Source: Candidatus Bipolaricaulota bacterium (GTDB taxonomy: Bacteria; Patescibacteriota; Patescibacteriia; UBA11705; DATKZF01). Taken from it: DNA of 64,000 nt. Below the pieces are notes generated by a model. It was not told the DNA's origin. It searched no databases and worked only from the letters and a program-made list of their open reading frames with translations. Made by a program: the position numbers and the translations under genes. Positions 2,865 through 30,239 of the stretch are shown here, one piece after another (positions within the stretch are counted from its first letter, which is position 1; each line of letters starts with the position of its first letter). The stretch is taken from the NCBI GenBank assembly GCA_035528115.1, contig DATKZF010000003.1:22699-86698 (forward strand). The letters are read 5' to 3'.

Positions 2865-2989
2865 TTGATCATGGAGCATAAATCATGAAACAAAAACGGA
2901 TTAAATTTGCGATAGCGGTAACGAATCTCGAATAACAATCATCTCATTATAATCAACAATTTCATTAACTTTTATTTACTCAAAAAAAT

Positions 2990-5528: not shown

Positions 5529-5555
5529 TCAAAAAACTTTAATAGCTACATGAAG

Positions 5556-5599
5556 CAACTTTAACTAATGCGTTTATAAGGAGGTAAGAGGTGAAATAA
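5556..5599 (+). repeat. recR 3'-terminal repeat, copy 4 (diverged, longer upstream match)
   Basis: caactttaactaatgcgtttataaggaggtaagaggtgaaataa aligns to copy 1 including the upstream cactttgac; coding potential lost. Confidence 0.7.
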
Positions 5600-5609
5600 A
5601 TAAGCAATA

Positions 5610-12866: not shown

Positions 12867-12872
12867 GTGAAT

Positions 12873-13292
12873 TTATTTAAAAACCGGCAAACCCAAATTG
12901 GCTAGGATCATCATTAAAACGAAAATCGGAAAAATAAGACGAATTAAAAAAACAAACGCGTAAAACACCGCCAAAAAGCAAAAACCGATAAAGCGAATGA
13001 CAACCATGGCGAGGCGCACGAACAAACTGACCAGCCTCCCCTGCCAATCCGTCTGGCCGAACATCGGGGTAAAAATATTTTTGGCCCAAAGCGTCAAGGC
13101 CATGTTTTCATTGGCGTGTCGCAGATTATTGCCCAAACTTCTCCATCCCTTGGCCAGACCTTTCGTGTACCACCAAATCGGAAAATAAAAAACATCTCCA
13201 ATCAGATCCTTGAAGAAAAATTTCAGCGATTTCAAAAACAGACTTTGCTCCATAGAATTTGTTTCGTCTACTATATTATAACATAAAAACAA
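12873..13292 (-). CDS. hypothetical membrane protein
   Basis: 139 aa; C-terminal hydrophobic helices. Confidence 0.4.
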   Translation of the reverse strand: MFLCYNIVDETNSMEQSLFLKSLKFFFKDLIGDVFYFPIWWYTKGLAKGWRSLGNNLRHANENMALTLWAKNIFTPMFGQTDWQGRLVSLFVRLAMVVIRFIGFCFLAVFYAFVFLIRLIFPIFVLMMILANLGLPVFK

Positions 13293-13393
13293 AGAAACAG
13301 AGAAACGCGGGTAGCGGTGGCGGTCTTGTGTAGGGACAGGTCACTGCCATGTCCTCGAATAGGCGATAATAATCCAAATTTATCGGCACCGAG

Positions 13394-13425
13394 TCGTAGG
13401 AACACAAAATTTTGTATTCCTACGA
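13394..13425 (-). terminator. hairpin terminator downstream of dNK
   Basis: tcgtaggaacac-aaaatttt-gtattcctacga, 12-bp stem with one mismatch. Confidence 0.45.
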
Positions 13426-13428
13426 CGC

Positions 13429-14043
13429 CTAATCCATTAAGTAAGATGAAATTTTTGAAATGAAATCATCAAAATCCTCCTGATTGTGTTTCAAATCCAC
13501 CTTGTCGTAATCAATGGTCAAAACCGGCGCGACTTTGAAATTCTCCGTCCACTCCGCATAAAGTTTGTTAAGCGACTCGACATATTCCCTGGAAATCAAA
13601 TTTTCGAATTCCCGACCGCGCTTTTTCACCCGCGCCATAATGGTTTCCGTCGAGGCCTTCAAATAAATCACCACGTCCGGAGCGGGTAAAATATTCAAAC
13701 AGATTTTGTAAAATTTTTGATAAACTTGCCAATCCCGAGTGGAAATAAAACCTTGGAGAAACAAGTTTTTGGCGAACACTTCCGAATTCTCATATAAACT
13801 GCGATCCAAGATCACAGAGCCGGGATTGATCGACAAATTATATTGATCCTCCAGCCGTTTTGATAAAAAATAAAGCTGGGATAAAAACGCCCACTTGTTC
13901 ATGTCCTGGTAAAAATCAGCCAAGTAAGGATTTTCCACAGCCGGCTCGACATAAGACGACCAGTTGAAATATTCGGCCAATTTTTTCGACAAAGTTGTCT
14001 TGCCCACGCCGATATTGCCGGCGATGGCTATAAACTTTTTCAT
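13429..14043 (-). CDS. deoxynucleoside kinase (dNK family)
   Basis: 204 aa; P-loop IAIAGNIGVGKTTL; dNK-type ERS/DR motifs. Confidence 0.8.
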   Translation of the reverse strand: MKKFIAIAGNIGVGKTTLSKKLAEYFNWSSYVEPAVENPYLADFYQDMNKWAFLSQLYFLSKRLEDQYNLSINPGSVILDRSLYENSEVFAKNLFLQGFISTRDWQVYQKFYKICLNILPAPDVVIYLKASTETIMARVKKRGREFENLISREYVESLNKLYAEWTENFKVAPVLTIDYDKVDLKHNQEDFDDFISKISSYLMD

Positions 14044-14057
14044 ACCGCTAATTTGCT

Positions 14058-14250
14058 GTTAGTTACAAATTACATTCACCTATAGCTTTAATCCTGAGAA
14101 TCTTGTAATTCCTGCCTGCTCCTCGAGTCTGAGCGACCTCGGAGTCGAAGACCGGCAGGCAGGCGTAACAGATGACCTAGAAGCTTAATAGCGGATTGTA
14201 ATTCGTAACAAATAACCTGAAAGCTAAATAATCGATTGTAATTCGTAACA
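14058..14250. repeat. MITE-like element family A (TIR ttgttacgaattacaa) with nested family B palindrome
   Basis: shares gtaatttgtaac / ttgtaattcgtaaca termini and an internal agctttcaggttatttgttac module with five other copies in the window. Confidence 0.7.
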
Positions 14251-16224
14251 TTAATCATAATAAATCGTCCTATCCTGCGAATCATTATCCAAATACGCGT
14301 TAAAATAATCATCCCCGCCCACGGTCACGTAAAGCGAAGGCTCCAATTCCTTGATGAACATGGACGGCTGATTTATCATTTCTCCGTATTCATAACTGAT
14401 GGTTCTGATCGGATAAATCATGGATAGTTCCTCCTTCGCCCGAGTAACGGCCACGTAAAAAAGCCGGCGCTCTTCTTCGAGCTGCGCCCGATCTTCCATT
14501 GATTTATGATGAGGGAACGCGCCGTCGCAAAGGCCTATAATAATGACATATGGCCATTCCAGGCCTTTGGCCTGATGGATGGTGGACAAGACCACTTCAT
14601 CTCGCGCCTCGGCGTCATTACGCCGATAACTTTCGCTGAGCATCACGTCGGTCAGCAGATCTTCGAGTTTTTCATAAGTGACCACGAAATTCATCAGCTG
14701 CCTGATGTCGTCGAGCCGGTCGCGATAGTTTTCAAAAACATTTCTGGCGTACTCTTTGTAATCCAAATCCAAAACGCATTTGATCATGTCCGCGATGCCG
14801 CGATTGTTTTCCTTTATTTCAAACATTTTTCTCAAAATATTGTTCAAATCATTCCAGCTGGCGCTCGCCCTCGAGCCGACCTGAATCTTAGTCGCCAAAA
14901 CTTCGTTCAAACTTTCGAACTTTTGAATTTTTTTCCAAATAGCGTCCGCGTTTTTCACGCCAATGCCTTCGCGCATTTTCAACAAACGCTTCCAGGAAAT
15001 CTCGTCCCTGAAATTTTGAATGATTTTCAAATATGAAACAATGTCTTTGATATGAGCCTGCTCGAAATAACGCAAACCGCCGCGAACGACATAAGGAATG
15101 TTTCTTTTGCTCATTTCCAGCTGCAATTCCGCGGATTGAAAAGTCGAGCGAAACAAAACCGCAGCCTCGCGCAAAGCTCGGCCTTTGTCTTTGATTTCCA
15201 AAATCCTATTGACCACCATGCTAGCCTGCTGATAAACGTCGCGCGCCGGAATGAGAATCGGCAAAATGCCATCGGGTTTATGAGTATTCAAATTTTTCCT
15301 AAATTGATCCTTGTTTTTTTCAATGCTGGCGTTGGCCAGATCCAAAATCTGCGGAGTCGAGCGGTAATTGGTTTCCAATTTGTAAATTTTTGCGTTTTCA
15401 AATCTTTTGGGAAAATTCAAAATGTTTTTTATATCCGCGGCGCGAAAAGAATAAATGCTCTGCGAATCGTCGCCGACCACCAAGACATTTTGATGAACGG
15501 ACGCCAATTCGTAAATTATTTCCGCTTGAATATGATTGGTGTCCTGATACTCATCCACCAAAATATAATGGAATCTCTCTGATAATTTGGTTTTGGTTTC
15601 CGGGAATTTTTTGAGCAAATCCAGCCACTTGGTCAAAAGATCATCAAAATCCATCAAGTTGGCCGATTTTTTCTTTTCCTCGTAGGAGGCCGCCACGTCA
15701 TCGATTTTATGGCTGACAAAATCGGGATAGCCGTAAATCTCCTCGGCCACTTCCAGCACGGGTTTTCTCGTGTTAAAAGCGAATGAAATTATGGAATGAA
15801 CCAAATCGGCTTTGGGAAAATCGTGGCCTTTGGTTTTTATGCCGAAATCTTCATAAACCGATTTCAATAATGTCACGCTGTCGTCTTGATCCAAAATATT
15901 AAAATTGCTTTGATAACCCAGCTTAGCCGCGTATTGTCTTAAAATCACGTTGCCGATATGGTGAAACGTGCCGGCCCAAAACTTCTTCGGCTCAAAGCCC
16001 AGCAATTTTTTTATTCGCTCCATCATTTCATTGGCCGCTTTATTGGTGAAAGTGACCAATAAAATATTTTCCGGCGAAACGCCTTTTTCAATCAAATACG
16101 CGACACGATAAACCAAAGTTCTGGTTTTTCCGCTGCCCGCTCCGGCCAAAACCAAAGCCGGCCCGTCCGCTTCGCTGACGACCTTGTATTGTTCTTCGTT
16201 CAGTTCCTTTTTAAAATCTATCAT
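14251..16224 (-). CDS. uvrD: ATP-dependent DNA helicase UvrD/PcrA family
   Basis: 657 aa; motif I AGAGSGKTRTL; motif II VDEYQDTN; UvrD-like C-terminal domain. Confidence 0.85.
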   Translation of the reverse strand: MIDFKKELNEEQYKVVSEADGPALVLAGAGSGKTRTLVYRVAYLIEKGVSPENILLVTFTNKAANEMMERIKKLLGFEPKKFWAGTFHHIGNVILRQYAAKLGYQSNFNILDQDDSVTLLKSVYEDFGIKTKGHDFPKADLVHSIISFAFNTRKPVLEVAEEIYGYPDFVSHKIDDVAASYEEKKKSANLMDFDDLLTKWLDLLKKFPETKTKLSERFHYILVDEYQDTNHIQAEIIYELASVHQNVLVVGDDSQSIYSFRAADIKNILNFPKRFENAKIYKLETNYRSTPQILDLANASIEKNKDQFRKNLNTHKPDGILPILIPARDVYQQASMVVNRILEIKDKGRALREAAVLFRSTFQSAELQLEMSKRNIPYVVRGGLRYFEQAHIKDIVSYLKIIQNFRDEISWKRLLKMREGIGVKNADAIWKKIQKFESLNEVLATKIQVGSRASASWNDLNNILRKMFEIKENNRGIADMIKCVLDLDYKEYARNVFENYRDRLDDIRQLMNFVVTYEKLEDLLTDVMLSESYRRNDAEARDEVVLSTIHQAKGLEWPYVIIIGLCDGAFPHHKSMEDRAQLEEERRLFYVAVTRAKEELSMIYPIRTISYEYGEMINQPSMFIKELEPSLYVTVGGDDYFNAYLDNDSQDRTIYYD

Positions 16225-16316
16225 ATTGAGTATACGAGATTACAGATTTGCGTACAGATTATACGAGATAATTCCAATCTGTATAATCTCGTATGTTTAT
16301 CTGTAATCTCGTAACC

Positions 16317-16847
16317 TCAATTCACTGAGAACTCGCAGCCGCAATAATTCTGCCTATGAAAATGTTCCTTATCGCAAATCTCGCAAGACTTTTTGAACCC
16401 GTCTCCCTTTCTCCAAATATTATCAATAAATGTCACTCCGTACATGGCCGCCATTTCATGGCCGATTTCATTGATCAATTCCGCCGGTTTGTGCGGACTG
16501 ACCGTCAGGGTCGCGGCGATGGCGTCAAATCCGTTTTCGCTCGCGACTTGAGCCGTTTCCGACAATCTGAGCGTAAAATCGACTTCACAGCGCTTGCCTT
16601 TCTCCGGTTCTTTTTCCAAACCTTTGATTTTTTCCAACCAGGCGCCATGATCGTATTCTCCTTCGATTAAATTCACATCGTATTTTTCGCAAAGTTTTTT
16701 CGCTTCGCTTAATCTCAAATCATATTCTTCTTTGGGAAAAACATTGGGATTATAAAAAAAAGCGGTTACATCCCACCCCATTTCTTTTAATTTTTCAATA
16801 ACATAACCGCCGCACGGAGCGCAGCAGATGTGAAGCAATACTTTCAT
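16317..16847 (-). CDS. queH: epoxyqueuosine reductase QueH (DUF208)
   Basis: LLHICCAPC N-terminal Cys motif and C-terminal CGC; start moved to the MKVLL ATG at 16847. Confidence 0.7.
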   Translation of the reverse strand: MKVLLHICCAPCGGYVIEKLKEMGWDVTAFFYNPNVFPKEEYDLRLSEAKKLCEKYDVNLIEGEYDHGAWLEKIKGLEKEPEKGKRCEVDFTLRLSETAQVASENGFDAIAATLTVSPHKPAELINEIGHEMAAMYGVTFIDNIWRKGDGFKKSCEICDKEHFHRQNYCGCEFSVN

Positions 16848-16975
16848 AAACTCTAAATTCGAAATCCTAAACAATATCGAAATTCCAATTTCCCAATGTT
16901 CCAAACGTTTGGAATTTAGTGTTTTGAAAATTAAAATTTGTTTAGGATTTAGAGATTAGTGTTTAGAATTTTTTA

Positions 16976-17320
16976 TTATTCTTCTCTTCTCAAAAGCAAT
17001 CCCGTCAGAGTCGTCACCAAAGTGTACAACAACGCGCCCAAAACCGCCGCCCAAAATCCGCTGACCGCAAATCCTTTGATGAATGTGGACACAAGCCAGA
17101 ACATCAGGCCGTTGATGATTAAATTGGACAAACCAAGCGTTAAAATGGTGATCGGCAAAGTTAAAAGTTTGAGAATATTTCCGATAATCGCGTTGACTAT
17201 TCCCAAAATAAGCACGAGGATCAAGGCGATGTAAAATTTTTCTACGCCGATACCCGGCACCAAATACGCAATGGCCAATAGCCCGAGAGCGTTCAGCAGC
17301 CAAGTTAAAATTAGTCTCAT
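16976..17320 (-). CDS. YvlD-like membrane protein (phage holin 4_2 / DUF360 family)
   Basis: LLNALGLLAIAYLVPGIGV...LTLPITILTLGL...NGLMFWLV closely matches B. subtilis YvlD-type sequences; start at MRLILT with SD aggagaaaat. Confidence 0.7.
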   Translation of the reverse strand: MRLILTWLLNALGLLAIAYLVPGIGVEKFYIALILVLILGIVNAIIGNILKLLTLPITILTLGLSNLIINGLMFWLVSTFIKGFAVSGFWAAVLGALLYTLVTTLTGLLLRREE

Positions 17321-17355
17321 ATTTTCTCCTGTAGCATGAAACATGAATCACGCTT

Positions 17356-17721
17356 TTAATGATTATCCAGTCCATTAAACGTCTTCCAAAGCATTGCGCC
17401 TATCTCGTCAGCCAACGCTTTCGCTTTCTGAAAATCACCCACAATCTCAATATAGCCTTCTTCTTTGGCAAAATCCATTAAATAAACGGATTCCTTCAGC
17501 GAACCATAAGCGATTTCCAAAAAATTTCGATGCACTTTATTTTTTATTCTGGCGTATCCTTCAATATAATTTAATATAACCGACAAAGCCGATCTCCTCA
17601 ATTGAGAAGTAACCCCATATAATTCCTCTATAGGAAAACATTTTGAAATTTTATAAACCAAATGCACATACTCATTCATCTTTTGTCTCATTATCCCATG
17701 AAATGTATTTTCATCTTCCAT
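17356..17721 (-). CDS. four-helix-bundle protein (23S rRNA intervening-sequence protein family)
   Basis: 121 aa; YK...ELYGVTSQLRRSALSVILNYIEGYAR...EIAYGSLKE matches the TIGR02436-type consensus. Confidence 0.7.
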   Translation of the reverse strand: MEDENTFHGIMRQKMNEYVHLVYKISKCFPIEELYGVTSQLRRSALSVILNYIEGYARIKNKVHRNFLEIAYGSLKESVYLMDFAKEEGYIEIVGDFQKAKALADEIGAMLWKTFNGLDNH

Positions 17722-17755
17722 ATTGTTTCATGATTCATGTTTCATGATTCATGCT

Positions 17756-18280
17756 TTATGACTTCCTAATCGCCGCGGCAAGACTTTTCCAGAAATGCAC
17801 ATCATCAAGCGCCTCAAAAAACGCTGCCGTATGCTCCCGGATAAGTTTTTCATTGGCCAGATAAATCAGCTTGGCGAGCCAATAATAAACGATAAGCAAC
17901 ATGATGATCAAATACAATCCTCCCCAAAACCACTTGTTGTTCAATGTCCAAAAAGAAACATTCACTTTCGCCACTTGCGAATATTGCCGGCCGTAAAAAT
18001 CATACGCCTTCAGTCTGACCAAATAATCTCCGTTGTCGAGCGTGCGCACCAGGTCGCGGCCTTCGTATGAAAAATCGTCGCTAAAATCCCACTCAAAAAC
18101 CAAATTCGCTTCATTCAAATTGTTTATTTTCGGTTCAAAATAAAAAGTGTTCCAATCAAGCTGTTTGATTCTGACGTAAACATTGCCGTCGCTTTGCATG
18201 CCGACTTGAGACGAAACAAACACTGCCGCGGCCAGCCAGGCGACCAGAAAAATAATTAAAATTTTTATTTTTGTTTTCAT
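17756..18280 (-). CDS. hypothetical secreted/membrane-anchored protein
   Basis: start at MKTKIKILIIFLVAWLAAAVFV (signal/TM); track ORF extends upstream through a repeat. Confidence 0.4.
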   Translation of the reverse strand: MKTKIKILIIFLVAWLAAAVFVSSQVGMQSDGNVYVRIKQLDWNTFYFEPKINNLNEANLVFEWDFSDDFSYEGRDLVRTLDNGDYLVRLKAYDFYGRQYSQVAKVNVSFWTLNNKWFWGGLYLIIMLLIVYYWLAKLIYLANEKLIREHTAAFFEALDDVHFWKSLAAAIRKS

Positions 18281-18350
18281 TTTGATTTTAGAAATTCGCC
18301 ACATCGAAATTCGATATTCGTAAGCGAAACGGGAAATTCGAAATTCGGAA

Positions 18351-18800
18351 TCAGTCCTCATGATAATTTTCCCATGTCTGTCCCAGCTTGGTCAACTGCC
18401 TGCAACATTTATCATATAAATCGATCAATTCTAAACAGGCGTCTCGACTATAAAATTTATTATAAAGATCCTTACACACCGATACATGATGAATTATTTC
18501 ATTTGATTCACCCGCGCAATCGTTCAAATATTTTCTCCAATTTTTCTTTTGATATCTTTTTGCAAATCCCTCCGCGATTAACGCCGGAGCCGCCTTGGAA
18601 GCTCTGCGCATCTGGCTCGCCAAATCAAATTTTTCATCATCAGGCAAAACCGGCACAATTTTTTCATGAACAATCAACATGGCTCGATATAAATTCTGAT
18701 AAACATTCAAATCCAAAAAACTCTTAATTGGTCCATATCGACGATTTTCGACGCCCGAATTTCCATTACGATTTTCGATTATCGACATAACGAATTTCAA
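18351..18800 (-). CDS. four-helix-bundle protein (23S rRNA IVS protein family), second copy
   Basis: 149 aa; LDLNVYQNLY...KFDLASQMRRASKAAPALIAEGFAKR...GESNEIIHH matches the same family. Confidence 0.65.
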   Translation of the reverse strand: MKFVMSIIENRNGNSGVENRRYGPIKSFLDLNVYQNLYRAMLIVHEKIVPVLPDDEKFDLASQMRRASKAAPALIAEGFAKRYQKKNWRKYLNDCAGESNEIIHHVSVCKDLYNKFYSRDACLELIDLYDKCCRQLTKLGQTWENYHED

Positions 18801-18801
18801 T

Positions 18802-19236
18802 TTATAATACTCTTAAGATTTTTAAGGCATGCTCAAAACCTTTAATGGCTTTGGCCGCTTCGCCGCGACGCAATTTGTAATCCGATTCATGCACGATTGT
18901 GTTTCTCAATTTATGCGCCCACCAAACATTTCTCAATTTTTCGTATTTGTAACAAGCGACTTTCAAACGTTGACCCAGGGTCTCGCCGGGCATGATCATT
19001 CCTTTCAAAACGAAATCCAGTAAATTATCCGCCTCGATAATCGCCACTCGCCACATGGCTTCGCTGTCTTTTGAAATCAAACTTTCAATTTCCACCCACT
19101 TGTCTTGTATTTGTTTGACGTCAATGTCTTCCGGCGGCCGGCGCCTGACCACAAACAAAATAATGACCACGACAAAAATCACTATCGCGCCGATTAAAAC
19201 GTCCAGCCATGAAAACTGCCAAGTTATGTCAAACAT
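18802..19236 (-). CDS. hypothetical membrane-anchored protein
   Basis: 144 aa; N-terminal TM (VLIGAIVIFVVVIILFVV). Confidence 0.4.
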   Translation of the reverse strand: MFDITWQFSWLDVLIGAIVIFVVVIILFVVRRRPPEDIDVKQIQDKWVEIESLISKDSEAMWRVAIIEADNLLDFVLKGMIMPGETLGQRLKVACYKYEKLRNVWWAHKLRNTIVHESDYKLRRGEAAKAIKGFEHALKILRVL

Positions 19237-19260
19237 AAATTCATAAATAAATAAACAAAG

Positions 19261-19394
19261 TTGTCATCTCGACCGCAGTCGTCCGAAGCCGCGGCGAAGG
19301 ATGACGGAGCGGAGAGATCTTTTCCAATTTTATTAAAAAGATTTCTCCATTTCGTTCTCCAGCCTGGCCGAGGGGTCGAAATGACAAAGACTAT
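19261..19394. repeat. MITE-like element family C (TIR ttgtcatctcgacc / ggtcgaaatgacaa)
   Basis: 14-bp terminal inverted repeats; internal gtcgtccgaagccgcggcgaaggatgac and gagagatcttttcc modules shared with copies at 30117, 31338 and 41994. Confidence 0.7.
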
Positions 19395-19400
19395 TATCGC

Positions 19401-20822
19401 TTAAAAACTCTGTTCAAACTGATGCGCCACTCTCAAAATGGTCGCTTCATCGAAATAATTGCCCAAAATCTGCAAACCGGTCGGGAATTCCCCGACTTGA
19501 TTCATGGGCACGGAAATGGCCGGCAACCCGGCCACGTTCGCGGACACCGTGTACACATCGGCCAAATACATTTGCAAAGGATCCTTCACTTTTTCACCGA
19601 TTTTAAACGCAATGCTCGGCGCGGTGGGCATTATGACCGCGTCGACTTTTTTGAAAGCCTTGGCAAAATCATGTTTGATCAGGGCTCGAACTTTTTGCGC
19701 TTGTTTGTAATACGCATCGCTGTAGCCTTCGGACAAAACATACGTGCCCATCATTATTCTTCTTTTAACTTCTTCTCCGAATCCGGCTTCTCTGGTTTTC
19801 AAGTACATGTTCATCAAATCGTCCGCTGCCGCTCTTTGCCCGTATTTGACGCCATCATATCTGGCCATATTGGAAGAGACTTCGGCTGACATTAAAATAT
19901 AATAAGCGGCCAAACTGTATTTGAAATAAGGCAATTCCACTCTTTTTATTTTCACTTTCAATTGTTCCAAAATCTTAATCGACTTTTTCAAATCATCAAA
20001 AACATTTCTATCCAGACCTTCGAAAAAACTTTCTTCCGGCAAGCCGATGGTCAGGCCTTTGAGCGGCTTTTCCAAATTTTGCAAAAAATCGTCTTGTCTG
20101 GAAACCGAAGTGGAATCAAACCTGTCTTGTCCATAAATGGTTTGCAAAATCATGGCCGCGTCTTCGGCCGTTTTGGCCAACGGCCCCACTTGGTCTAAGC
20201 TCGAAGCCATGGCCGCCACGCCATAGCGAGACACTCGGCCGTAAGTCGGTTTCAAACCCACGCAGCCGCACAGCGCCGCCGGTTGCCGCACCGAGCCGCC
20301 GGTATCCGTTCCCAAGGCTCCCAAACATTGATCATCGGCCACGGCCGCAGCCGAACCGCCTGATGAGCCTCCGGCCACGCGTTCCGGGTTAAACGGATTT
20401 TTAACCGCGCCGAAAGCGGAATTCTCGGTGGACGCTCCCATGGCGAATTCATCCAAATTCGTTTTGCCCAAATATACGGCATTCTGCTCGTTCAATTTCT
20501 CAATAACCGTCGCGTTGTACGGCGCCACGTAATTTCGCATAATCTTTGACGCGCAAGTGCAATGAACATCTTCAATCAAAATAATATCCTTGATCGCCAA
20601 AGGAATGCCTTCCAAAGTTTTCAGAGGCAGTCCGCTTGAAATTTTTTCATCGACAACTTTGGCGCGCGCCAGCGCGTCGCCTTCCATGACAGTTAAAAAA
20701 GCGTTTATCTCGGGCTGTCTTTTTTCTATTTGTTTCAAACAATCCTTGATCAATTCCGCGCAAGAAAATTCTTTTTCCCGCAGACCTCTTTGAGCTGATT
20801 TGATTGTTAATTTATTAAGCAT
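19401..20822 (-). CDS. gatA: Asp-tRNA(Asn)/Glu-tRNA(Gln) amidotransferase subunit A
   Basis: 473 aa; amidase signature GGSSGGSAAAVA; gatC is adjacent. Confidence 0.9.
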   Translation of the reverse strand: MLNKLTIKSAQRGLREKEFSCAELIKDCLKQIEKRQPEINAFLTVMEGDALARAKVVDEKISSGLPLKTLEGIPLAIKDIILIEDVHCTCASKIMRNYVAPYNATVIEKLNEQNAVYLGKTNLDEFAMGASTENSAFGAVKNPFNPERVAGGSSGGSAAAVADDQCLGALGTDTGGSVRQPAALCGCVGLKPTYGRVSRYGVAAMASSLDQVGPLAKTAEDAAMILQTIYGQDRFDSTSVSRQDDFLQNLEKPLKGLTIGLPEESFFEGLDRNVFDDLKKSIKILEQLKVKIKRVELPYFKYSLAAYYILMSAEVSSNMARYDGVKYGQRAAADDLMNMYLKTREAGFGEEVKRRIMMGTYVLSEGYSDAYYKQAQKVRALIKHDFAKAFKKVDAVIMPTAPSIAFKIGEKVKDPLQMYLADVYTVSANVAGLPAISVPMNQVGEFPTGLQILGNYFDEATILRVAHQFEQSF

Positions 20823-21391: not shown

Positions 21392-21685
21392 TCATTTTTT
21401 CCCCCGCATCACTCCTTGCACCCTAATCTGCCCACTCTCAACTTCCGGCGCCTGACCGAGTAATTTTTCCGCCGAATAAATCAAATGAACTTCGTCCTCG
21501 CGACTGACATTGCTCAAGCCGGTGATATGCGAAACCGGTTCGATATTGCTCAAATCGATTGACTTTAATTCTTCGAAATATTTGAAAACTTCACCGATTT
21601 GCTTGGCGTATTTTTCTTTTTCTTCCTCGCTTATCCCGAGCCTGGCCAAGATCGCCAGCCTCTCTATCAACTCCTTATTTATCAT
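21392..21685 (-). CDS. gatC: Asp/Glu-tRNA amidotransferase subunit C
   Basis: 97 aa; LAILARLGISEEEKEKY... is typical of GatC. Confidence 0.85.
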   Translation of the reverse strand: MINKELIERLAILARLGISEEEKEKYAKQIGEVFKYFEELKSIDLSNIEPVSHITGLSNVSREDEVHLIYSAEKLLGQAPEVESGQIRVQGVMRGKK

Positions 21686-21968
21686 AAAATTTCGATTTGC
21701 TTGAAGTAAGAAATCTATTGGAATTATAGCACATTTTCATGAAGCATGGAACATGCCTGCCCGCCGTAGCTTAAGAGCGAAGGCGGGAAGCATGGAGCAT
21801 GAAACAGAGGCAGATAAGCTATGTTTTCGTAAATTTTGTAAATTCCTGTAGTTTCGCAGTCAAAATTCGTAACTATTCGTAATTATTAATAATGAATTTA
21901 ACTGGATTTGATTTGTAATCATTTGCAATTTATTTTTTACTAAAATAAGCTAAAAAAGCTCAGAAACA

Positions 21969-22000
21969 TTGACTAAAATTAGATTTTATGCTATTATAAT
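21969..22000 (+). promoter_or_regulatory. sigma70-type promoter TTGACT-17-TATTAT driving the high-GC island
   Basis: ttgact at 21969-21974, 17-nt spacer, tattat(aat) at 21992-22000; lies in AT-rich host-like DNA immediately before the GC jump. Confidence 0.5.
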
Positions 22001-22095
22001 ATGTTATTCTGCGCGAATCAGCCGGACAAAACAAAGCTTTTCGCGACAGAATATTGTTTTTCACGCGGTGGAAACCGCCAAATTAGGAGGGAAGG

Positions 22096-22569
22096 ATGAA
22101 TCTGCTGAACGAGATCACTCGATTCACCTGCAATCTGTTCGACGACGACGACCGCGACCCCGAGTTCTTCGGAATGCACGAGGTCGGGCGGCGCGGCGAC
22201 GCTCTGCCCTTCATCGGGGACGTCGCGCGGCAGATCGCGGACGAGGACGGAGACGGAGACGATGAGTTCGTCTACCGGCCCAACGCCCCGATCGAGGGGC
22301 CGCTTCCCCGCCGGTCGGCCGATCCGCCCGCGGCCAAGCCCATTTTCTGCTCGGTCATCCCTCCCTTCACCAACCGCCCGACGAAGCGGGGCATGTACCA
22401 GCGCACTCGCAGTCTGCCCGCGGACTCGCTCCGCGAGTGCAAACCCCGACGGGACTCGAACTGGAAGGACTCCGGGGCTGAGCGCCAGTTCGTCCGTCAC
22501 ACGGGACGCCGCGGACGGATCATGACCATCCGCGACCCCGCGCTCGTCGACAACGACGCGATCGGTTAG
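22096..22569 (+). CDS. hypothetical protein (high-GC island ORF1, Asp-rich, no signal peptide)
   Basis: 157 aa; AGGAGG 7 nt upstream of ATG; antisense ORFs in this region judged to be GC artefacts. Confidence 0.4.
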   Translation: MNLLNEITRFTCNLFDDDDRDPEFFGMHEVGRRGDALPFIGDVARQIADEDGDGDDEFVYRPNAPIEGPLPRRSADPPAAKPIFCSVIPPFTNRPTKRGMYQRTRSLPADSLRECKPRRDSNWKDSGAERQFVRHTGRRGRIMTIRDPALVDNDAIG

Positions 22570-22717
22570 CCCACCTGTTCTTTCCCACCTTTCGCCCAAC
22601 CTCATTCGTTGGGCTCCAATCCTTGCTTGATATAATCACATAGCGGGCAAAGATCGGAGATTGTTCCGAAACACCCACCATGCTTCCCGCTGAGAGCGGG
22701 AAAAGAGGAGATGCTAG

Positions 22718-25700
22718 ATGAAACGGATGATCGTGTGTCTTATGGTTGTTCTTCTGGCCGCAAGCTGCGGCAACAGCGCGTCCACCCGCAAGGTGGAAAC
22801 CGACGCCGGTCCCGCGCTCGAATGCGGGGAGGGCACCATCAAAGTGGACGGAGAATGCCGTCCGAAAGACGAACTCTGCAACGGCATCGACGACGACGGG
22901 GACGGAGTGACGGACGAACAGTGCGTCATCCCTCCCAGCAACGTGGCCTGTGGCGCGGGTACCATCCTCGTAGATGGGGAATGCGTTCCCCTGCCAAATC
23001 AGGACTACGATGAGGACAACGACGGCTTCTCGCCGTTCGAAGGCGACTGCAACGACGACGATCCGACCATCAACCCGACGGCGACCGAAGTCTGTGATGA
23101 ACTGGACAACAATTGCGACGGGCAGGTAGACGAGGACGATCCGTCGCAGGACGATTTCTGCATCTCGATGAACCAGTACAACGGCAATTACGTTGCCGTT
23201 CAGGGTACGGAGAGGTGCCATGGGATCGCCGGCATGATCTGCACGCCGCTACCGGTCGAGCTATGCCGGCAAAACGCAGAAATCTGCGACAATGCTCTCG
23301 ACGACAACTGCGACGGCGTGGTGGACGAGGGCTGCGACCCCGACTTTGACTTTGACAAAGACGGCTTCAGTCCGTTCGACGGAGACTGCGACGACGACAA
23401 CCGCGACATCCATCCGGATGCCATCGAAAGCTGCAACGGCCTGGACGACGACTGCGACGGCCAGATCGACGAGGGCTACCCGATCCAGTTTTTCCTCCGC
23501 GACGCGGATGGAGACGGGCACGGAGATCCCGAAAACATGATTCAGGCCGCCGACTGTCTCTCCGCGCCGTACGGATACATCGACTGGATCGTCGACCTTG
23601 ACAACGACTGCGACGACAGCGACAGTCACGTCAACCCCGCGGCCATCGAGTACTGCAACAACATCGACGATGACTGCGACGGCGCGACCGACGAGGACGA
23701 CCCGGATATGGGTATTGCCTGCACGGCCGTGCTGAGTCTGCACGACCACGACGTGCCGATCCTCGGCGTCAACCTCTGTGAGAACGGAGAGATGCTGTGC
23801 ACGCCTCCGCCGCTGGAAGAATGCCAGCTGCAGACGGAAATCTGCGGCGACATCTACGACAACAACTGCGACGGGCAGGTGGACGAGGACTGTGAAGAAG
23901 ATGGGGCCCCGCACTACTGCGAGCCGGTCTACACCAACTACGGCATCCTGATCGGCTACCGCGGCTGTTGCGGCGCCAGCCCGCTGACTACTACTCATCC
24001 CGAAGCGGGCATGTTGATCAAGACGCATGAGTACAGCTCAGTGTACTACTACGCCAGTGACGGATTCAGGTATGTCTTCCCGACTACGCTCGAGCTAGAT
24101 TCCTGGTACTCTCCCCTCGACGAATACGGCATCCCCGTTTCGCCCAACGAGGAGATCTGCCAGCAGGTCTACGACGTTTCACTCCTTGTGTTGGCATCGA
24201 TTCCAATGGGCATGAAAAACGTCACCCTTCGTCCCGGAGCATTCGTCACCGGAAGCACGACGGACTCGAGCCAGCGCTACGTGGTGGATCACTGCGCGAC
24301 GCGGAAAGAAGTCGATCCGATCACCGTGCTGGATGAGATCTACTCGTCCAACTACGGGTCGACCGCCTGGGAGCGAACGCACCCGGTGTGGAATGTCATG
24401 TGGGGCATGTACACGACCGGTCAGACAGTCACCTCCGCCGATAATTTCGACTGGCTGGAAACATACCAGTCGGCAACCATCGAAGAGGAGCTGGGAATCA
24501 GCGGGATGTGCGTCGACCAGGACGGCGACGGCTACAGCCCATTCGCGGGCGATTGCGACGACGGAAATGATTCGCTCTTTCCCGGCGCGCAGGAACTCTG
24601 CGACGGGATTGACAATAACTGCGACGGCGAAACCGACGAAGATTTCGCCGAGTATCTCGGCCAGCCATGCAGAGGATACGCCCGTAACGGTGAATTCCTC
24701 GATGGCTACTGTTCCGAGATCGGGACAGTCGTTTGCCATAACAACCTCGCGCTCAGGTGTTCATCCGCTGACGAAAATTCGCGGTGGACAACCGATTACA
24801 ACTGGTCGTTGCCCGAAGTCTGCGGCAACAGCCTCGACGACAACTGCGACGGGCAGGTGGATGAAGGCTGCGACCAGCCGCCGGACGGAGTGAGCTTCTG
24901 CGAAGTCGACGATGACTGCGCGGATGCCGCCTGGGGCCAGTACTGCGTGTATTCGCTAGTACTGGATGCCAGCTTCTGCCAGGCTTGTCGGCAAGACGTC
25001 GACCCCGTGGACATGTCTCAATGGGAGTCTGTCGGATGCGGTGGTCAGACGCCAATCTGCGCATGGGGAGTCCAAACCGTACCCGTAAGCGATGCGTTTC
25101 CCGATGGGTATGCGCCGTTCTACTGGTGCGTGGAATGCGTCCTCGACACGGACTGCACACCGGGGTTCATCTGCTCGCAAGACAATTTCGTCTGCGAGCA
25201 GCAAGCCGCCGCCGCGACTTTGACTGTCGATGTCGCCGGCATGCCGGCTTCCGGCAATACCTACGTCAAAGGCACTGACGGAGTTCCGGCCGTAGGATTC
25301 ATCTTCACGGCCGGCGATTCCGCTGACGCGCTGGTCAATTCCGTGAAATTGACGGTGTACCTCGACAACAACCAAAACGGCTTTAGCGATACCGCGGATG
25401 TCGATGACACTTCGGGCGCCCAAAACGTTTTGGCGACAGTCACCATCTACGACGCAGGGACTCCGACAACCCCGCTGGCCGACGCCAAGAACCTGACAGT
25501 CAATGCCAGCGACATCACCGTTCAGTTCGACTCGTTGAACTGGACAGTCCCATCAGGCAGTACAAAAGCTCTGTTGGTCAAAGCGACGTTGTCGACCACA
25601 GCTCCTTTGAGCGGAGATGACGACGATTTCGCCTTGACGATCCAGGAGTCTGGCGATGTTGACGCCGAAGATGGCAATGGCACGGCGGTCAATGTCGTTC

Positions 25701-26719
25701 TGCAAAACGGCAACCAGGAACCGGATGTCTGGCAAACCGCAACCGGTGGCGGCATCCTGGACCTGACCGAAGCAACAAGCACACCCGTCTCATCCTTGCT
25801 CGTGGCCGGCACCTCGAACAACCTGGTTTCCGTGGTCGAATTCGCTTCGACCGGCGAAGCCTTCATCGTCGAGAGAATGCAGGTCTACGATGCCGACGGC
25901 AATGGCTATGATGAGATCGGTGCCGTCAGAGTAAGCTATACGAACAGCCTCGGCGAGACCGAAGCCAAGGCCGCGATCCCGGACATGAACGGGATTGCAA
26001 TTTTCAACAACTTGGACATCTATGTCCCGAAAGATGCGGCCGCGGATGTCCGGATCTTTACGGATCTGAACACGGTCGCGGGTAGCGCGGACAATGGCGA
26101 TTCAATCAGACTCACGGTGGCCGAATCCGCGAACTTCAGAGCGGTCGGACGAGAGTCGGGGGTCGTCGTCATCGACACGGCGGCTGCAGCTGACCCTGAG
26201 GTCAACAGCCACTACGTGTTCGAGTCCGTACCGAGTGTTGCCTTCGCGGTGGACACTCCGTCCGGAAATCTGATCCCGAGCGCCAACACTTTGTTGGCTA
26301 AATTAGCGGTCACCGCTGACGGCGCGAAGGACATCACGTTCGACGCGGCTACCGGCGATATTACTTTCAAGATCAGCTCTTCTTGCGCCGGCACGGCGAC
26401 AGGAGATGTTTACTTGAAAGACGCAGATGGAACCACTTTGGCTACACCCACCGCTATCGCTCCGTGTTCCGCCACCAGCGTTAAGTTCCTTTTCGAAGAT
26501 GTTACCACCGACTGGAGAGTTCCGGCCGGCGAGACCAAGTACTTGTATGTTTGGGGTGATACGTCAATGATGACGTCTCAGGGCGATTCCATCCAGCTCT
26601 GGTTGGATGACGCTTCAAATGCAAACTTCACTTGGAGCATCAACGGAATCGGCACTTACCAACATGCTGACATCCTCTTTAGAGGCGATAAGTATGGCGG
26701 TCTGTTGCTCAAGCCATAG
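22718..26719 (+). CDS. giant lipoprotein with about 10 MopE-type putative metal-binding repeats (CxxxDDDCDGxxDE) and C-terminal beta-rich repeats
   Basis: 1333 aa; lipoprotein signal MKRMIVCLMVVLLAASC; repeated DxDGDGxSPFxGDCDDxxxxxxPxAxExCDGxDNDCDGxxDE units; C-terminal half Thr/Val/Ala-rich tandem modules. Confidence 0.7.
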   Translation: MKRMIVCLMVVLLAASCGNSASTRKVETDAGPALECGEGTIKVDGECRPKDELCNGIDDDGDGVTDEQCVIPPSNVACGAGTILVDGECVPLPNQDYDEDNDGFSPFEGDCNDDDPTINPTATEVCDELDNNCDGQVDEDDPSQDDFCISMNQYNGNYVAVQGTERCHGIAGMICTPLPVELCRQNAEICDNALDDNCDGVVDEGCDPDFDFDKDGFSPFDGDCDDDNRDIHPDAIESCNGLDDDCDGQIDEGYPIQFFLRDADGDGHGDPENMIQAADCLSAPYGYIDWIVDLDNDCDDSDSHVNPAAIEYCNNIDDDCDGATDEDDPDMGIACTAVLSLHDHDVPILGVNLCENGEMLCTPPPLEECQLQTEICGDIYDNNCDGQVDEDCEEDGAPHYCEPVYTNYGILIGYRGCCGASPLTTTHPEAGMLIKTHEYSSVYYYASDGFRYVFPTTLELDSWYSPLDEYGIPVSPNEEICQQVYDVSLLVLASIPMGMKNVTLRPGAFVTGSTTDSSQRYVVDHCATRKEVDPITVLDEIYSSNYGSTAWERTHPVWNVMWGMYTTGQTVTSADNFDWLETYQSATIEEELGISGMCVDQDGDGYSPFAGDCDDGNDSLFPGAQELCDGIDNNCDGETDEDFAEYLGQPCRGYARNGEFLDGYCSEIGTVVCHNNLALRCSSADENSRWTTDYNWSLPEVCGNSLDDNCDGQVDEGCDQPPDGVSFCEVDDDCADAAWGQYCVYSLVLDASFCQACRQDVDPVDMSQWESVGCGGQTPICAWGVQTVPVSDAFPDGYAPFYWCVECVLDTDCTPGFICSQDNFVCEQQAAAATLTVDVAGMPASGNTYVKGTDGVPAVGFIFTAGDSADALVNSVKLTVYLDNNQNGFSDTADVDDTSGAQNVLATVTIYDAGTPTTPLADAKNLTVNASDITVQFDSLNWTVPSGSTKALLVKATLSTTAPLSGDDDDFALTIQESGDVDAEDGNGTAVNVVLQNGNQEPDVWQTATGGGILDLTEATSTPVSSLLVAGTSNNLVSVVEFASTGEAFIVERMQVYDADGNGYDEIGAVRVSYTNSLGETEAKAAIPDMNGIAIFNNLDIYVPKDAAADVRIFTDLNTVAGSADNGDSIRLTVAESANFRAVGRESGVVVIDTAAAADPEVNSHYVFESVPSVAFAVDTPSGNLIPSANTLLAKLAVTADGAKDITFDAATGDITFKISSSCAGTATGDVYLKDADGTTLATPTAIAPCSATSVKFLFEDVTTDWRVPAGETKYLYVWGDTSMMTSQGDSIQLWLDDASNANFTWSINGIGTYQHADILFRGDKYGGLLLKP

Positions 26720-26771
26720 AGCGCCCTTTTCCGCCCAACCGTCCATGACGGTTGAGGCAAGGAGACACGAA

Positions 26772-26808
26772 AAAACGCCTTCCGGATCACTCTGGAAGGC
26801 GTTTCTAA
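26772..26808 (+). terminator. rho-independent terminator (copy 1 of a duplicated terminator)
   Basis: gaaaaaacgccttccggatcactctggaaggcgtttctaatttt; 9-bp stem acgccttcc/ggaaggcgt plus T-run. Confidence 0.7.
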
Positions 26809-26958
26809 TTTTAAAATCACCATTGACATATTCCTCAAACTGTGCAAAAATATGAATTCCGCGGATAATTGCCATTCAAGCCTTGTTTATTTGCTAAAAT
26901 AAGCGGGGCTTGGGTAGTAATTCGTGTTCAACGGCTTTCCAATAGGAGGGAAAAAGCC

Positions 26959-28017
26959 ATGAAACACTTCGGTTGCTTGTTCGCGTGCGTACTGGTTCTG
27001 GGCTGCGGCGACAACGGCAGCAAGCCACAACTGGGCGATGCCCAGGACGTCGCCGTGTTCGATTTCTCGGGCAACGACCTCCAAGAGACGTTCATGCCCG
27101 ACACGTCCGGCGACGTCAGCGCCGCCGAAGTCACGAGCGACGCGACCATCGAGGACGCCGGCGAGGACTCGGCCATCGAGGCCGGTTCCGACCTGCCGAC
27201 GCAAGACATGATCGAAGACGCGCCGGTCGAGCTGTGCGGCAATGGAGCGCTCGATCCGGGCGAGCAGTGCGACGGCGTCCCCGCGGACGACGTCAACTGT
27301 CAGACGCTCGGCTTCTACGCCGGGCACCTGTCCTGCGCGGACTGTTCGTTCGACACCAGCCAGTGCTCGAACGAAGTGCCCCCGACCTGCGGGGACGGCA
27401 ACGTGGACGCGGGAGAGGACTGCGATGGCGACAACCTCGCGGGATCCTACTGCACCTCGCTCGGATGGGAATTCACGGGCGGTTCGCTCGCCTGCCTCGA
27501 CTGCGCCTTCGACGCCAGCGGCTGCACTCCCCAGTGCGGCAACGGCGTCTGCGAGCCGGAAGAGTCCTACGACTCATGTCCGGACGACTGTCCGCAACCA
27601 TGCCTGGAGGCGCTCGTCATGGCCTTCGCGGCCGACGGTCCGCAGAACCTGGTCATGAACGTGAATGCGCACGTGGCCAGAATCAGCTTGTCCGCCATCG
27701 GCGAGAACGCGGTCGTGGACACGTTGACGTTCCGCGTCGCGGTCCAGATCGCCACGCCGGACAGCGACGTGGAGACCTGGCGTCTCAAGACGGAGACCAC
27801 GCTCGTGATCGCCGACTACCTGGCCGATCTCTCGGGCGATGAGAACGGCTTAGTGATCTTCAACATCAACAACCCGCTGACAATCACTCCCGGCGCGCCG
27901 AGGACGCTGGACATCTTCGTCAACACGGCCGAGATGGACGCGGCAACCGACACCCTTCAGCTGTGGCTCGTAACGGGCTGCGGCGAAGAGGTGGAAGGTC
28001 CGTTGCTGATCAAGTAA
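26959..28017 (+). CDS. lipoprotein with myxo-type cysteine-rich repeats (CGNGxxDxGExCDG) and a C-terminal domain shared with the giant protein
   Basis: 353 aa from ATG 26959 (AGGAGG RBS); signal MKHFGCLFACVLVLGC; CGNGALDPGEQCDG, CGDGNVDAGEDCDGDN and CGNGVCEPEE repeats; C-terminal TLQLWL motif also present in the 22718 protein. Confidence 0.65.
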   Translation: MKHFGCLFACVLVLGCGDNGSKPQLGDAQDVAVFDFSGNDLQETFMPDTSGDVSAAEVTSDATIEDAGEDSAIEAGSDLPTQDMIEDAPVELCGNGALDPGEQCDGVPADDVNCQTLGFYAGHLSCADCSFDTSQCSNEVPPTCGDGNVDAGEDCDGDNLAGSYCTSLGWEFTGGSLACLDCAFDASGCTPQCGNGVCEPEESYDSCPDDCPQPCLEALVMAFAADGPQNLVMNVNAHVARISLSAIGENAVVDTLTFRVAVQIATPDSDVETWRLKTETTLVIADYLADLSGDENGLVIFNINNPLTITPGAPRTLDIFVNTAEMDAATDTLQLWLVTGCGEEVEGPLLIK

Positions 28018-28051
28018 AAACAAGTCCGGCCAAGCCCGGACACAACACGAA

Positions 28052-28100
28052 AAAACGCCTTCCGGTCAGTCTGGAAGGCGTTTGAAATTTTAATTTTTTT
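28052..28100. terminator. rho-independent terminator (copy 2 of the duplicated terminator; may also terminate ligA)
   Basis: gaaaaaacgccttccggtcagtctggaaggcgtttgaaattttaattttttttt. Confidence 0.7.

Positions 28101-30239
<2,139 letters not shown>

Follow-up and report, generated by a model that had tools for sequence, protein, structure and literature searches.

A GC-rich block of MopE-repeat lipoprotein genes at one site in a probable Patescibacteria genome and its relatives

Between gatC and ligA on contig DATKZF010000003.1 (NCBI assembly GCA_035528115.1, 'Candidatus Bipolaricaulota bacterium') lies a GC-rich block of three genes: a small open reading frame (ORF1), a gene for a giant lipoprotein of 1333 amino acids with MopE-type repeats (gene 2) and a gene for a second lipoprotein of 352 amino acids (gene 3). 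We analysed the block within a stretch of 64,000 nucleotides of this contig (positions 22,699 to 86,698, forward strand; hereafter the window), to which coordinates refer unless a relative is named. Our reading, which we hold with a probability of about 0.6, is that the block is a fast-evolving cell-envelope lipoprotein locus shared at a fixed position by a small clade of Patescibacteria, and that it predates the split of the window genome from two relatives. By sequence similarity, the clade probably lies near Falkowbacteria, Kuenenbacteria and Buchananbacteria. Modules of such a locus would come and go and be rearranged from one relative to the next, which is what diversifying pressure on surface proteins leads one to expect. 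The original prediction, made from the DNA letters of the window, had instead proposed a recent, unameliorated transfer from a high-GC organism resembling Myxococcota or Bdellovibrionota, possibly the host of an episymbiont; the evidence below makes that origin very improbable.

The two closest relatives that could be retrieved have the same kind of block in the same slot. The closest (L010; assembly GCA_049319825.1, LigA 87% identical) is labelled 'Patescibacteria group'; the other (L011) is a contig of IMG 3300022699 with a LigA 77% identical. Their GC-rich blocks (Table 1) stand out from backgrounds of about 43% and about 38% GC, respectively. Both genomes keep the gene order pgm, racemase, rseP, gap, ligA ... 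gatC, gatA, and in both, genes with PF11617 (Cu-binding_MopE) repeats lie between ligA and gatC on the strand opposite to ligA, as in the window. Because site and orientation are the same in L010 and L011, the MopE island would either predate the split of the known carriers or be repeatedly exchanged at one slot. Island segments are 64–72% identical to those of the relatives at the nucleotide level and flanking genes 65–81%; at four-fold degenerate sites, island orthologues differ by 0.48–0.56 and core genes by 0.45–0.61. A recent transfer is hard to reconcile with homologous GC-rich MopE genes at the same locus and in the same orientation in two genomes that are near saturation at four-fold sites (45–61% different). 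Nor did we find the empty site in near relatives that would mark a recent island: the MopE block is present in both of the closest relatives found and absent only at LigA identities of 62% or less.

Every flanking gene from 8.8 to 36.9 kb (8771–36901) lies on the minus strand, and GC skew along the plus strand is negative. The block genes (22096–28017) alone run on the plus strand, an opposite orientation that is kept in L010 and L011, and they may run head-on to replication.

As far as sequence comparison goes, the island genes of the three genomes are homologous but domain-shuffled. A 770-amino-acid lipoprotein of L010 is 44% identical to residues 46–596 of the giant protein: it has the MopE repeats and the central domain and then ends. 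The same island also encodes a 497-amino-acid lipoprotein, which has a further central domain, and a pair of short MopE lipoproteins. In L011, one protein (L11_566) is 56% identical to the 352-amino-acid protein over 265 amino acids and has 8 Cys-rich repeats against about 2.5, and another (L11_676) joins MopE repeats to the Cys-rich linker (residues 722–819 of the giant protein) and to the C-terminal module that the window lipoproteins share.

Two further genes were seen at this slot. A MopE lipoprotein gene adjoining ligA in L011 (L11_341; L011:12146–13171) has a host-like composition (43% GC; GC content at third codon positions, GC3, of 0.35), whereas the rest of that island is at 58–66% GC; it is either a family member that has ameliorated completely or a native one. 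In a fourth relative with a LigA 77% identical (L020), the 737 nucleotides beyond ligA (2606–3342) are at 40% GC before the contig ends; on this short contig, the tail of a minus-strand open reading frame, ending in GNENIENCPDDCSEEQAEKPL and a stop codon, resembles the CGNGxCE..CPxDC linker of the 352-amino-acid protein.

More distant relatives keep the ligA ... gatC–gatA ... QueH–UvrD synteny wholly or in part, with other cargo in the slot: a single methyltransferase gene in one (L012) and a Cas12a–Cas4–Cas1–Cas2 locus with a transposase in another (L013). From these comparisons, the ligA–gatC gap appears to be a general insertion hotspot in the lineage, with variable cargo at conserved flanks. 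The slot could then have been overwritten through homologous recombination in the flanks, with alleles drawn from a GC-rich pool among related Patescibacteria. The lineage-specific cargo, the strongly differing gene content of the three island carriers and the atypical composition at a fixed site would all fit such replacement. We nevertheless think it unlikely: the island orthologues have diverged about as far as the flanks, none of the collections searched yielded a pool genome or an identical allele, and the origin of the GC bias would be left unexplained.

The organism itself is probably a Patescibacterium and its NCBI label, 'Candidatus Bipolaricaulota bacterium' (HUT222xx, VMX18_), mis-assigned, because the named best matches of its LigA are nearly all from Patescibacteria. 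Among the best 120 LigA matches (57–87% identical), about one quarter carry an organism name; these include Falkowbacteria, Kuenenbacteria, Buchananbacteria and the Parcubacteria group, and two are called just 'bacterium'. The neighbours in the window (23S-rRNA-IVP proteins, PDDEXK_3, QueH and DUF8173) are consistent with a Patescibacteria host.

The compositional shift was seen in every profile that we calculated. The six 1-kb windows of 22001–28000 have GC contents of 0.61, 0.61, 0.58, 0.58, 0.52 and 0.66, and the remaining 58 of the 64 kb are all at or below 0.518, most of them at 0.40–0.48. At a resolution of 200 nucleotides, GC climbs over 21900–22200 and drops over 27900–28100, with a trough of 0.40–0.44 inside the block at 26700–26950. 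GC3 reaches 0.86 in ORF1, 0.73 in the giant gene and 0.86 in gene 3, against 0.28–0.60 (mostly 0.47–0.59) in 40 other genes. The shift proposed originally, from about 22005 to about 28045, is real in the 1-kb, 200-nucleotide and GC3 profiles. The background that had been given as 35–40% is in fact about 44–45% (host coding sequence, 45.2%), and the low values occur only in the immediate flanks, that is, in the adjacent spacer and the small PDDEXK gene.

In base composition and codon usage, the block is thus as atypical as a recently acquired island would be. It has none of the usual mobility features: no integrase, transposase, tRNA or flanking direct repeats were found at the block, and a blastn search with the island had no match among plasmids or phages. 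Its place between gatC and ligA, without mobility genes, was as predicted; it is bordered on the left by gatA, a PDDEXK_3 gene and gatC, and on the right by ligA and gap.

Taken alone, the composition would also fit an assembly chimera or a mis-binning that joined GC-rich and Patescibacteria contigs. This explanation we regard as negligible. The exact 1333-amino-acid protein recurs on six contigs of 0.2–1 Mb, and exact ORF1, ORF3, GatA, GatC, GAPDH and ClpB proteins are found in NCBI, IMG, Logan and ENA, on contigs of 438, 621 and 763 kb. Their locus tags in the NCBI record are consecutive (VMX18_02270–02280), the same type of junction occurs in two other genomes from separate assemblies, and the block is interrupted by AT-rich spacers that bear promoters and terminators of the host type.

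Much of the GC excess comes from what the proteins are made of. Compared with the host, the island is rich in Asp (12.3% versus 5.2%), Cys (4.7% versus 1.1%) and Gly (8.9% versus 6.4%), and poor in Lys (1.7% versus 8.6%) and Ile (4.4% versus 8.1%). Encoding the island amino acids with the codon preferences of the host would give 52.7% GC, compared with 45.2% for the host and 60.5% observed for the island, so that roughly half of the excess is amino-acid composition and the other half is synonymous. The synonymous half is restricted to certain codon families. Host and island preferences are near-identical for GCN, GGN, CCN, ACN and TGY; in families with A or T at the second position, the host favours A/T endings and the island C/G endings (island versus host: GAC, 0.74 and 0.39; TTC, 0.87 and 0.43; ATC, 0.90 and 0.36; AAC, 0.76 and 0.32; TAC, 0.83 and 0.41; CAG, 0.74 and 0.28). 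The C-ending fraction of two-fold NNY codons (Y, C or T) is 0.74–0.90 in the island genes and 0.13–0.58 in about 40 other window genes, and the relatives repeat the contrast (0.74 against a host value of 0.30 in L010, and 0.79 against 0.23 in L011). Throughout, C exceeds G at third positions. The C/G-ending bias is largely confined to coding sequences; the spacers within the islands of the window, L010 and L011 are AT-rich and have host-type promoter-like sites.

The codon usage of the window host is itself split. Its four-fold families with G or C at the second position have a GC content at four-fold sites (GC4) of about 0.70 (GCC/GCG, GGC, CCG and ACC), whereas its two-fold families with A or T at that position favour A/T endings (AAA, 0.80; GAA, 0.75; AAT, 0.68). 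Such a split codon bias is unusual; the GC4 of L011 is about 0.49.

Two explanations for the synonymous bias deserve weight, both of them short of being probable. In the first, which we entertain tentatively, a single old import from a donor of about 65–70% GC, possibly a GC-rich Patescibacterium, has been decaying passively, and the present GC3 of 0.65–0.96 would be what remains. Position and orientation would then be shared by descent, and GC3 does drop along the giant gene towards its 3′ end (from 0.79 to 0.62) and form a continuum across the family, from 0.35 (L11_341) through 0.64 (P0003, a homologue described below) and 0.73–0.86 (window) to 0.96 (L10_194, from L010). A crude two-state estimate, in which about 0.44 substitutions per site per lineage leave about half of the excess, fits both the coding GC3 and a spacer GC of about 0.40–0.45. 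However, the 352-amino-acid protein gene and its orthologue L11_566 have equal GC4 (0.88 and 0.87 over 69 sites) although their hosts differ (about 0.70 versus about 0.49), and passive amelioration is unlikely to give equal values because the host values differ. The nearest outside relatives of the beta-module half of the giant protein are in AT-rich genomes, so a GC-rich Patescibacteria donor must be postulated, and no GC-rich donor was found.

The GC4 equality mildly favours the second explanation, active maintenance, which we consider possible but doubtful. Here translational selection on highly expressed envelope proteins, or GC-biased gene conversion in a recombining cassette, would keep the C and G endings. 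NNC codons are read by GNN anticodons, and a preference for C over G that is largely coding-only, flanked by AT-rich spacers, of similar size in all three genomes and independent of the host background would be expected under such a force; shuffled modules and duplicated cassette terminators would suit a recombining locus. On the other hand, the gene for GAPDH, which is likely well expressed, has an NNY C-ending fraction of only 0.44; the preference for G- over A-ending codons of Gln, Glu and Lys is not the usual signature of translational selection; and the DNA repeat copies in the block are only 60–84% identical to one another, with no sign of recent conversion. A polarity test of four-fold sites with outgroups was limited to 39 usable sites, and the 64-kb window holds no ribosomal or elongation-factor genes for an expression-linked codon calibration. 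On this doubtful account, the locus would have been actively held at a GC3 of 0.7–0.96, in coding sequence only, through near-saturating divergence and regardless of host drift (38–45% GC).

The giant protein combines parts of different kinds (Table 1). PF11617 matches it in seven stretches with 174.4 bits (cutoff 27), and the pattern CxxxDDxCDGxxDE finds eight core motifs, those of the N-terminal region at residues 54, 126, 190, 239, 313 and 376; the MopE repeats of the original prediction are therefore there, but are fewer than the ten or so that it counted. Of its 62 Cys residues, 60 fall within residues 1–830. The lipobox pattern [LVI][ASTVI][GAS]-C is present in both window lipoproteins (MKRMIVCLMVVLLAAS-C in the giant protein and MKHFGCLFACVLVLG-C in the 352-amino-acid protein), and the lipoprotein N-terminal layout recurs in P0003, P0014 (a second homologue), the L010 gene, L11_566 and L11_676; in the first three of these the signal peptide ends N-C-G/S. 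The NCBI gene model, named 'MopE-related protein', has 1325 amino acids and starts at Met9. The 1333-amino-acid start seems preferable because an AGGAG lies 8 nucleotides upstream of it and it gives the signal peptide a basic n-region (MKRM...).

The central domain yielded a structure model with a predicted local distance difference test (pLDDT) score of 79.6, the top fold matches of which were the EccB repeat and PlyCB-type wall-binding domains (EccB first in Foldseek, weakly); a profile search with this domain against PDB sequences found nothing. The C-terminal tandem beta-rich modules that had been predicted are three in number, at residues 831–1333, and a subregion scan gave no significant Pfam or NCBIfam family for them or for L11_566.

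We searched the whole giant protein against 5.8 billion proteins. It returned thousands of MopE-repeat proteins spread over many phyla, Myxococcota, Bacteroidota and Thermodesulfobacteriota among them. Apart from P0003 and P0014, matches that span about half of the protein are at most about 31% identical and repeat-driven, and among the 5.8 billion proteins there was no high-identity homologue in a candidate donor lineage outside the clade. Only P0003 (868 amino acids, 51% identical) and P0014 (925 amino acids, 41%) have the full architecture: lipobox, MopE repeats, central domain, MopE repeats, Cys-rich linker and C-terminal module, in this order. Both are on 3-kb contigs, with genes of 53–54% GC and AT-rich bases in the little flanking sequence available, and look like other instances of such a block in additional relatives.

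The central and distal parts lead elsewhere. Relatives of the central domain occur in a metagenome-assembled genome of the 'Patescibacteria group' (beside pilin-like and LamG proteins), in one of Uhrbacteria and in another of Patescibacteria, where they stand alone or sit in other contexts; scans with a central-domain alignment returned three loci from the genome collection and two from the metagenome collection, and no further island carriers. The C-terminal 508 amino acids match 521 cluster representatives at E ≤ 1e-3 with phmmer (best, 7e-104). Many of these homologues are about 1100–1300 amino acids long with the region at their C terminus, and their N termini have a 'GDL[IV]K..VYY..DGKRY.FP' module that is the same as the central domain. 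Ten of the 521 were looked up, and the two that carry an organism name are from the Patescibacteria group and Peregrinibacteria. The closest non-clade homologue, P0250 (44% identical), and P0265 come from AT-rich genomes (GC3 of 0.31–0.32). By these matches, domains shared with other Patescibacteria make up no less than the distal 60% of the giant protein, which is a chimera: MopE repeats are joined to a large surface protein of the Patescibacteria type.

The 352-amino-acid protein (originally put at 353) consists of a lipobox (VLVLG-C16), an acidic linker, about 2.5 CGNGxxDxGExCDG Cys-rich repeats (residues 91–215) and a C-terminal module (residues 216–352). That module is homologous to module 3 of the giant protein (BLASTP E=4e-7 over 123 amino acids), which bears out the proposed C-terminal domain common to the two lipoproteins. 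The Cys-rich repeats had been called myxo-type. The corresponding NCBI model, TIGR02232 (myxo_disulf_rpt), scores the protein at 14.2 bits, below its cutoff of 20.8, and has no match at E ≤ 1 in the orthologue L11_566 with its eight repeats; of the two repeat models that the original prediction put forward for checking, MopE is thus recognized and TIGR02232 is not.

These results leave little of a myxobacterial origin. Atypical GC and GC3, the frequency of Myxococcota among the MopE matches and the weak, sub-threshold TIGR02232 hit are what can be said for a recent transfer from such an organism. Against it, homologues of the central and C-terminal domains occur in other Patescibacteria and Peregrinibacteria, two of them in AT-rich genomes (GC3 about 0.31), no near homologue exists outside the clade in the proteins searched, and the block holds AT-rich spacers with host-type promoters and resembles no plasmid or phage. 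Neither the repeats as a hallmark of Myxococcota or Bdellovibrionota nor the host of an episymbiont as donor is borne out.

The ORF1 protein has an acidic N-terminal and a basic C-terminal half and lacks a signal peptide, and its gene has the codon-position signature GC3 > GC1 > GC2; a small acidic protein of 157 amino acids is present as first described. Neither it nor its positional counterparts match Pfam or NCBIfam. The acidic/basic proteins nearest to gatC in L010 (L10_194) and L011 (L11_215) are 33% identical to each other (E=1e-20), and ORF1 shares with them only the short motifs FFG[IM][RH] and QF[LV]RH..R.

ORF1 is flanked by a perfect 13-nucleotide inverted repeat, CCATGCTTCCCGC, at 21783–21795 (minus strand) and 22678–22690 (plus strand). 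Two matches were found where 0.12 would be expected; each copy lies within a local GC-rich hairpin, without an Rfam match. The Rfam scan of the spacer between gatC and ORF1 found nothing, nor did a search for tandem repeats and phase-variation tracts.

All three genes are on the plus strand and have strong AGGAG-type ribosome-binding sites, in agreement with the original prediction. Its single operon is not borne out: gene 2 is followed by a strong terminator hairpin and gene 3 is preceded by a promoter-like site, so that the block is likely to form two transcription units, the first made up of ORF1 and gene 2 and the second of gene 3. The promoter-like sites are not more frequent than in shuffled sequence (2 found, 2.7 expected). 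The terminator is a 44-nucleotide element (AAAAAACGCCTTCCGG...CTGGAAGGCGTTT) that stands 3′ of both gene 2 and gene 3 and is not in L010 or L011; four arm matches were found against 0.24 expected by chance, and the repetition after both genes suggests a cassette-like duplication.

Table 1. Features of the block, its flanks and the corresponding slot in relatives (window coordinates unless a relative is named; aa, amino acids; nt, nucleotides)
Feature	Position	Strand	Remarks
gatC, left conserved flank	21392..21685	-	Pfam GatC; 69-71% nt identity to gatC of L010 and L011
AT-rich divergent intergenic region	21686..22095	.	GC 0.25-0.37, host-like
Promoter-like site, TTGACT-17-TATTAT with extended -10 TG	21969-21997	+	5′ of ORF1
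ORF1, 157 aa	22096..22569	+	AGGAGG ribosome-binding site
Giant gene (gene 2), 1333 aa	22718..26719	+	AGGAG-type ribosome-binding site
Signal peptide and lipobox of giant protein, MKRMIVCLMVVLLAAS-C17 (LAAS-C17)	22718..22768	+	read from sequence
N-terminal Cys/Asp-rich MopE-repeat region, aa 40-392, six core motifs	22835..23893	+	PF11617 E=4e-52; DNA repeat families D1-D6
Central domain, aa 395-600, EccB-repeat/PlyCB-like fold, putative cell-wall-binding module	23900..24517	+	
Second MopE block (motifs aa 628, 702) and Cys-rich linker (aa 717-830)	24518..25207	+	linker 45% identical to L11_676
Three tandem all-beta modules, aa 831-1005, 1006-1168, 1169-1333	25208..26719	+	last ends GDSIQLWL...LLLKP
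Terminator hairpin after gene 2, 44-nt element	26771..26814	+	14-bp stem (26773-26804), then T-run
Promoter-like site for gene 3, TTGACA-17-AAAAAT with TG	26823..26851	+	within 40-44% GC spacer
Gene 3, 352 aa	26959..28017	+	AGGAG-type ribosome-binding site
Second terminator copy, 44 nt	28050..28093	.	77% identical to first; between convergent gene 3 and ligA, shared with ligA
ligA, right conserved flank	28101..30062	-	Pfam ligase domains; 80.6% / 76% nt identity to ligA of L010 / L011
L010 block (365-kb contig)	~12.2-20.3 kb		56-66% GC
L011 block (170-kb contig)	13.4-19.2 kb		58-66% GC
L012 slot	12002-13369		single methyltransferase; 38% GC
L013 slot	12181-20319		Cas12a-Cas4-Cas1-Cas2 and transposase; ~30% GC

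Several observations weigh against a shared envelope locus older than the split. Long context comes from two relatives only, and for that reason vertical inheritance and repeated replacement at the hotspot are inseparable. A hidden Markov model built from L10_194 and L11_215 scores ORF1 at 0.6 bits, whereas shuffled controls reach 7.3 bits. The MopE half, judged by its matches, traces to no phylum, and the equal GC4 of gene 3 and L11_566 in hosts of different GC4 is not what simple descent with drifting composition leads one to expect. The AlphaFold model of the C-terminal 508 amino acids, from a four-row alignment, is unreliable (pLDDT 45), and the functions proposed below are argued from sequence and predicted structure.

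Elsewhere in the window, two tandem paralogues of 582 and 603 amino acids (43585–45333 and 45337–47148) combine T4SS_pilin with Amidase_2 (N-acetylmuramoyl-L-alanine amidase), preceded by the gene for a PD40-repeat protein and followed by that for a RadA/KaiC-like ATPase. Two open reading frames of 217 and 303 amino acids at 4875–6521 have no Pfam match and, at 32–36% GC with a GC4 of 0.26–0.32, form a low-GC outlier opposite to the island. A protein of 452 amino acids (2990–4348) matches PF08014 (MATCAP, the microtubule-associated tyrosine carboxypeptidase family; E=3e-26).

The two lipoproteins are likely to be membrane-anchored, disulfide-rich envelope or adhesin proteins. From their signal peptides, both are expected to be exported and to carry a lipid anchor, on Cys17 in the giant protein and on Cys16 in the 352-amino-acid protein, and the N-terminal Cys would hold them in the cytoplasmic membrane. 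The Asp-rich, disulfide-rich MopE repeats would form a rigid stalk and probably bind Ca2+; Cys/Asp-rich motifs of this kind are expected to be disulfide-stabilized Ca2+-binding stalk elements rather than a copper site. From its modelled fold, the central domain could plausibly grip a cell-wall polymer, be it the cell's own or a partner's. The distal beta modules, including the C-terminal module common to both lipoproteins, would offer a variable interaction surface: their position, variability between relatives and membership of a surface-protein family suggest that they are the exposed end. ORF1 would be a small cytoplasmic acidic/basic protein. An adhesin role is thus a reasonable proposal, and to that extent the earlier idea stands, although its further step, co-option of the adhesins from a host, finds no support.

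Published work bears on two of these parts. EccB1 resembles PlyCB, and peptidoglycan binding has been proposed for EccB1 (PMC4769845); the best structural matches of the central-domain model, the EccB repeats, PlyCB and the cell-wall-binding domains (CBDs) of LysIME-EF1 and Lys170, are all envelope-associated. MopE-like Cys/Asp motifs range from bacteria to teneurins and algal gametolysins (PMC3278476), and because of this span a PF11617 motif says little about donor or function.

With the PF11617 proteins, the giant protein shares seven to eight copies of CxxxDDxCDGxxDE, above the Pfam threshold. Only this short repeat is common to them, and it is fused here to what appear to be Patescibacteria-type domains and to a lipoprotein signal. 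Unlike Methylococcus capsulatus MopE, the giant protein, which was not aligned to MopE itself, gives no indication of the copper site (His/His/oxidized Trp in a MopE-like C-terminal domain), and the rest of it belongs to other families. A further likeness is to a surface-protein family of Patescibacteria and Peregrinibacteria that has no name or Pfam entry (P0250, P0253, P0255, P0265 and MBI2464412.1; about 1100–1300 amino acids), the members of which have a signal peptide, PlyCB-like repeats, tandem beta modules and a C terminus in ..KP. Residues 826–1333 of the giant protein align end to end with them at 27–44% identity, down to the terminal GDxIQ.(W/Y)L...L(V/L)KP, and its central domain has their 'VYY..DG.RY.FP' PlyCB/EccB-like module. 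It differs from them in its lipobox, where they have a plain signal or transmembrane segment, its MopE N-terminal half, its mere three beta modules and its GC3 (0.62–0.79 versus about 0.31 in P0250 and P0265). The Cys-rich repeat of the 352-amino-acid protein starts like the TIGR02232 repeat, with CG(N/D)G..D.GE.CD, but its unit of about 47 amino acids has a second half, TCxxLGFxGGxLxCxxxCxFDTSxC, that lies outside the model.

As a locus, the block invites comparison with the O-antigen clusters between galF and gnd of enterobacteria, which are hypervariable surface loci at a fixed site with atypical GC. Conserved flanks, variable cargo, an atypical composition shared by relatives and probable surface exposure of the products are common to both. 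In contrast to the O-antigen clusters, the cargo here is protein lipoproteins and not sugar pathways, the GC deviation is upward in an AT-leaning genome, and exchange by flank recombination is not an established part of the likeness.

Some of this was known before: the NCBI name 'MopE-related protein', the domain families (two of them unnamed) and the existence of variable surface loci at fixed sites. What is unusual here, on the sequence comparisons above, is the union of a MopE half, Patescibacteria surface modules and a lipoprotein anchor in an ultra-small-genome lineage. The foremost unusual feature is a C/G-ending codon bias that persists at one locus in three genomes of differing GC. Our literature search found no paper that connects MopE repeats to Patescibacteria, nor one about GC-rich islands in Candidate Phyla Radiation (CPR) genomes.

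CPR bacteria attach to partner cells, likely through surface proteins, few of which have been characterized. The locus described here offers a comparably placed set of lipoproteins in three genomes, candidates for an envelope or adhesin role, between which modules have clearly been swapped. It also cautions against taking any sharp GC island of a small genome for a recent transfer: half of the signal in this case comes from amino-acid composition, and the block predates the split of its carriers. If the bias is actively maintained, the locus would be a naturally occurring case, on the scale of one locus, of a force that maintains composition in reduced genomes.

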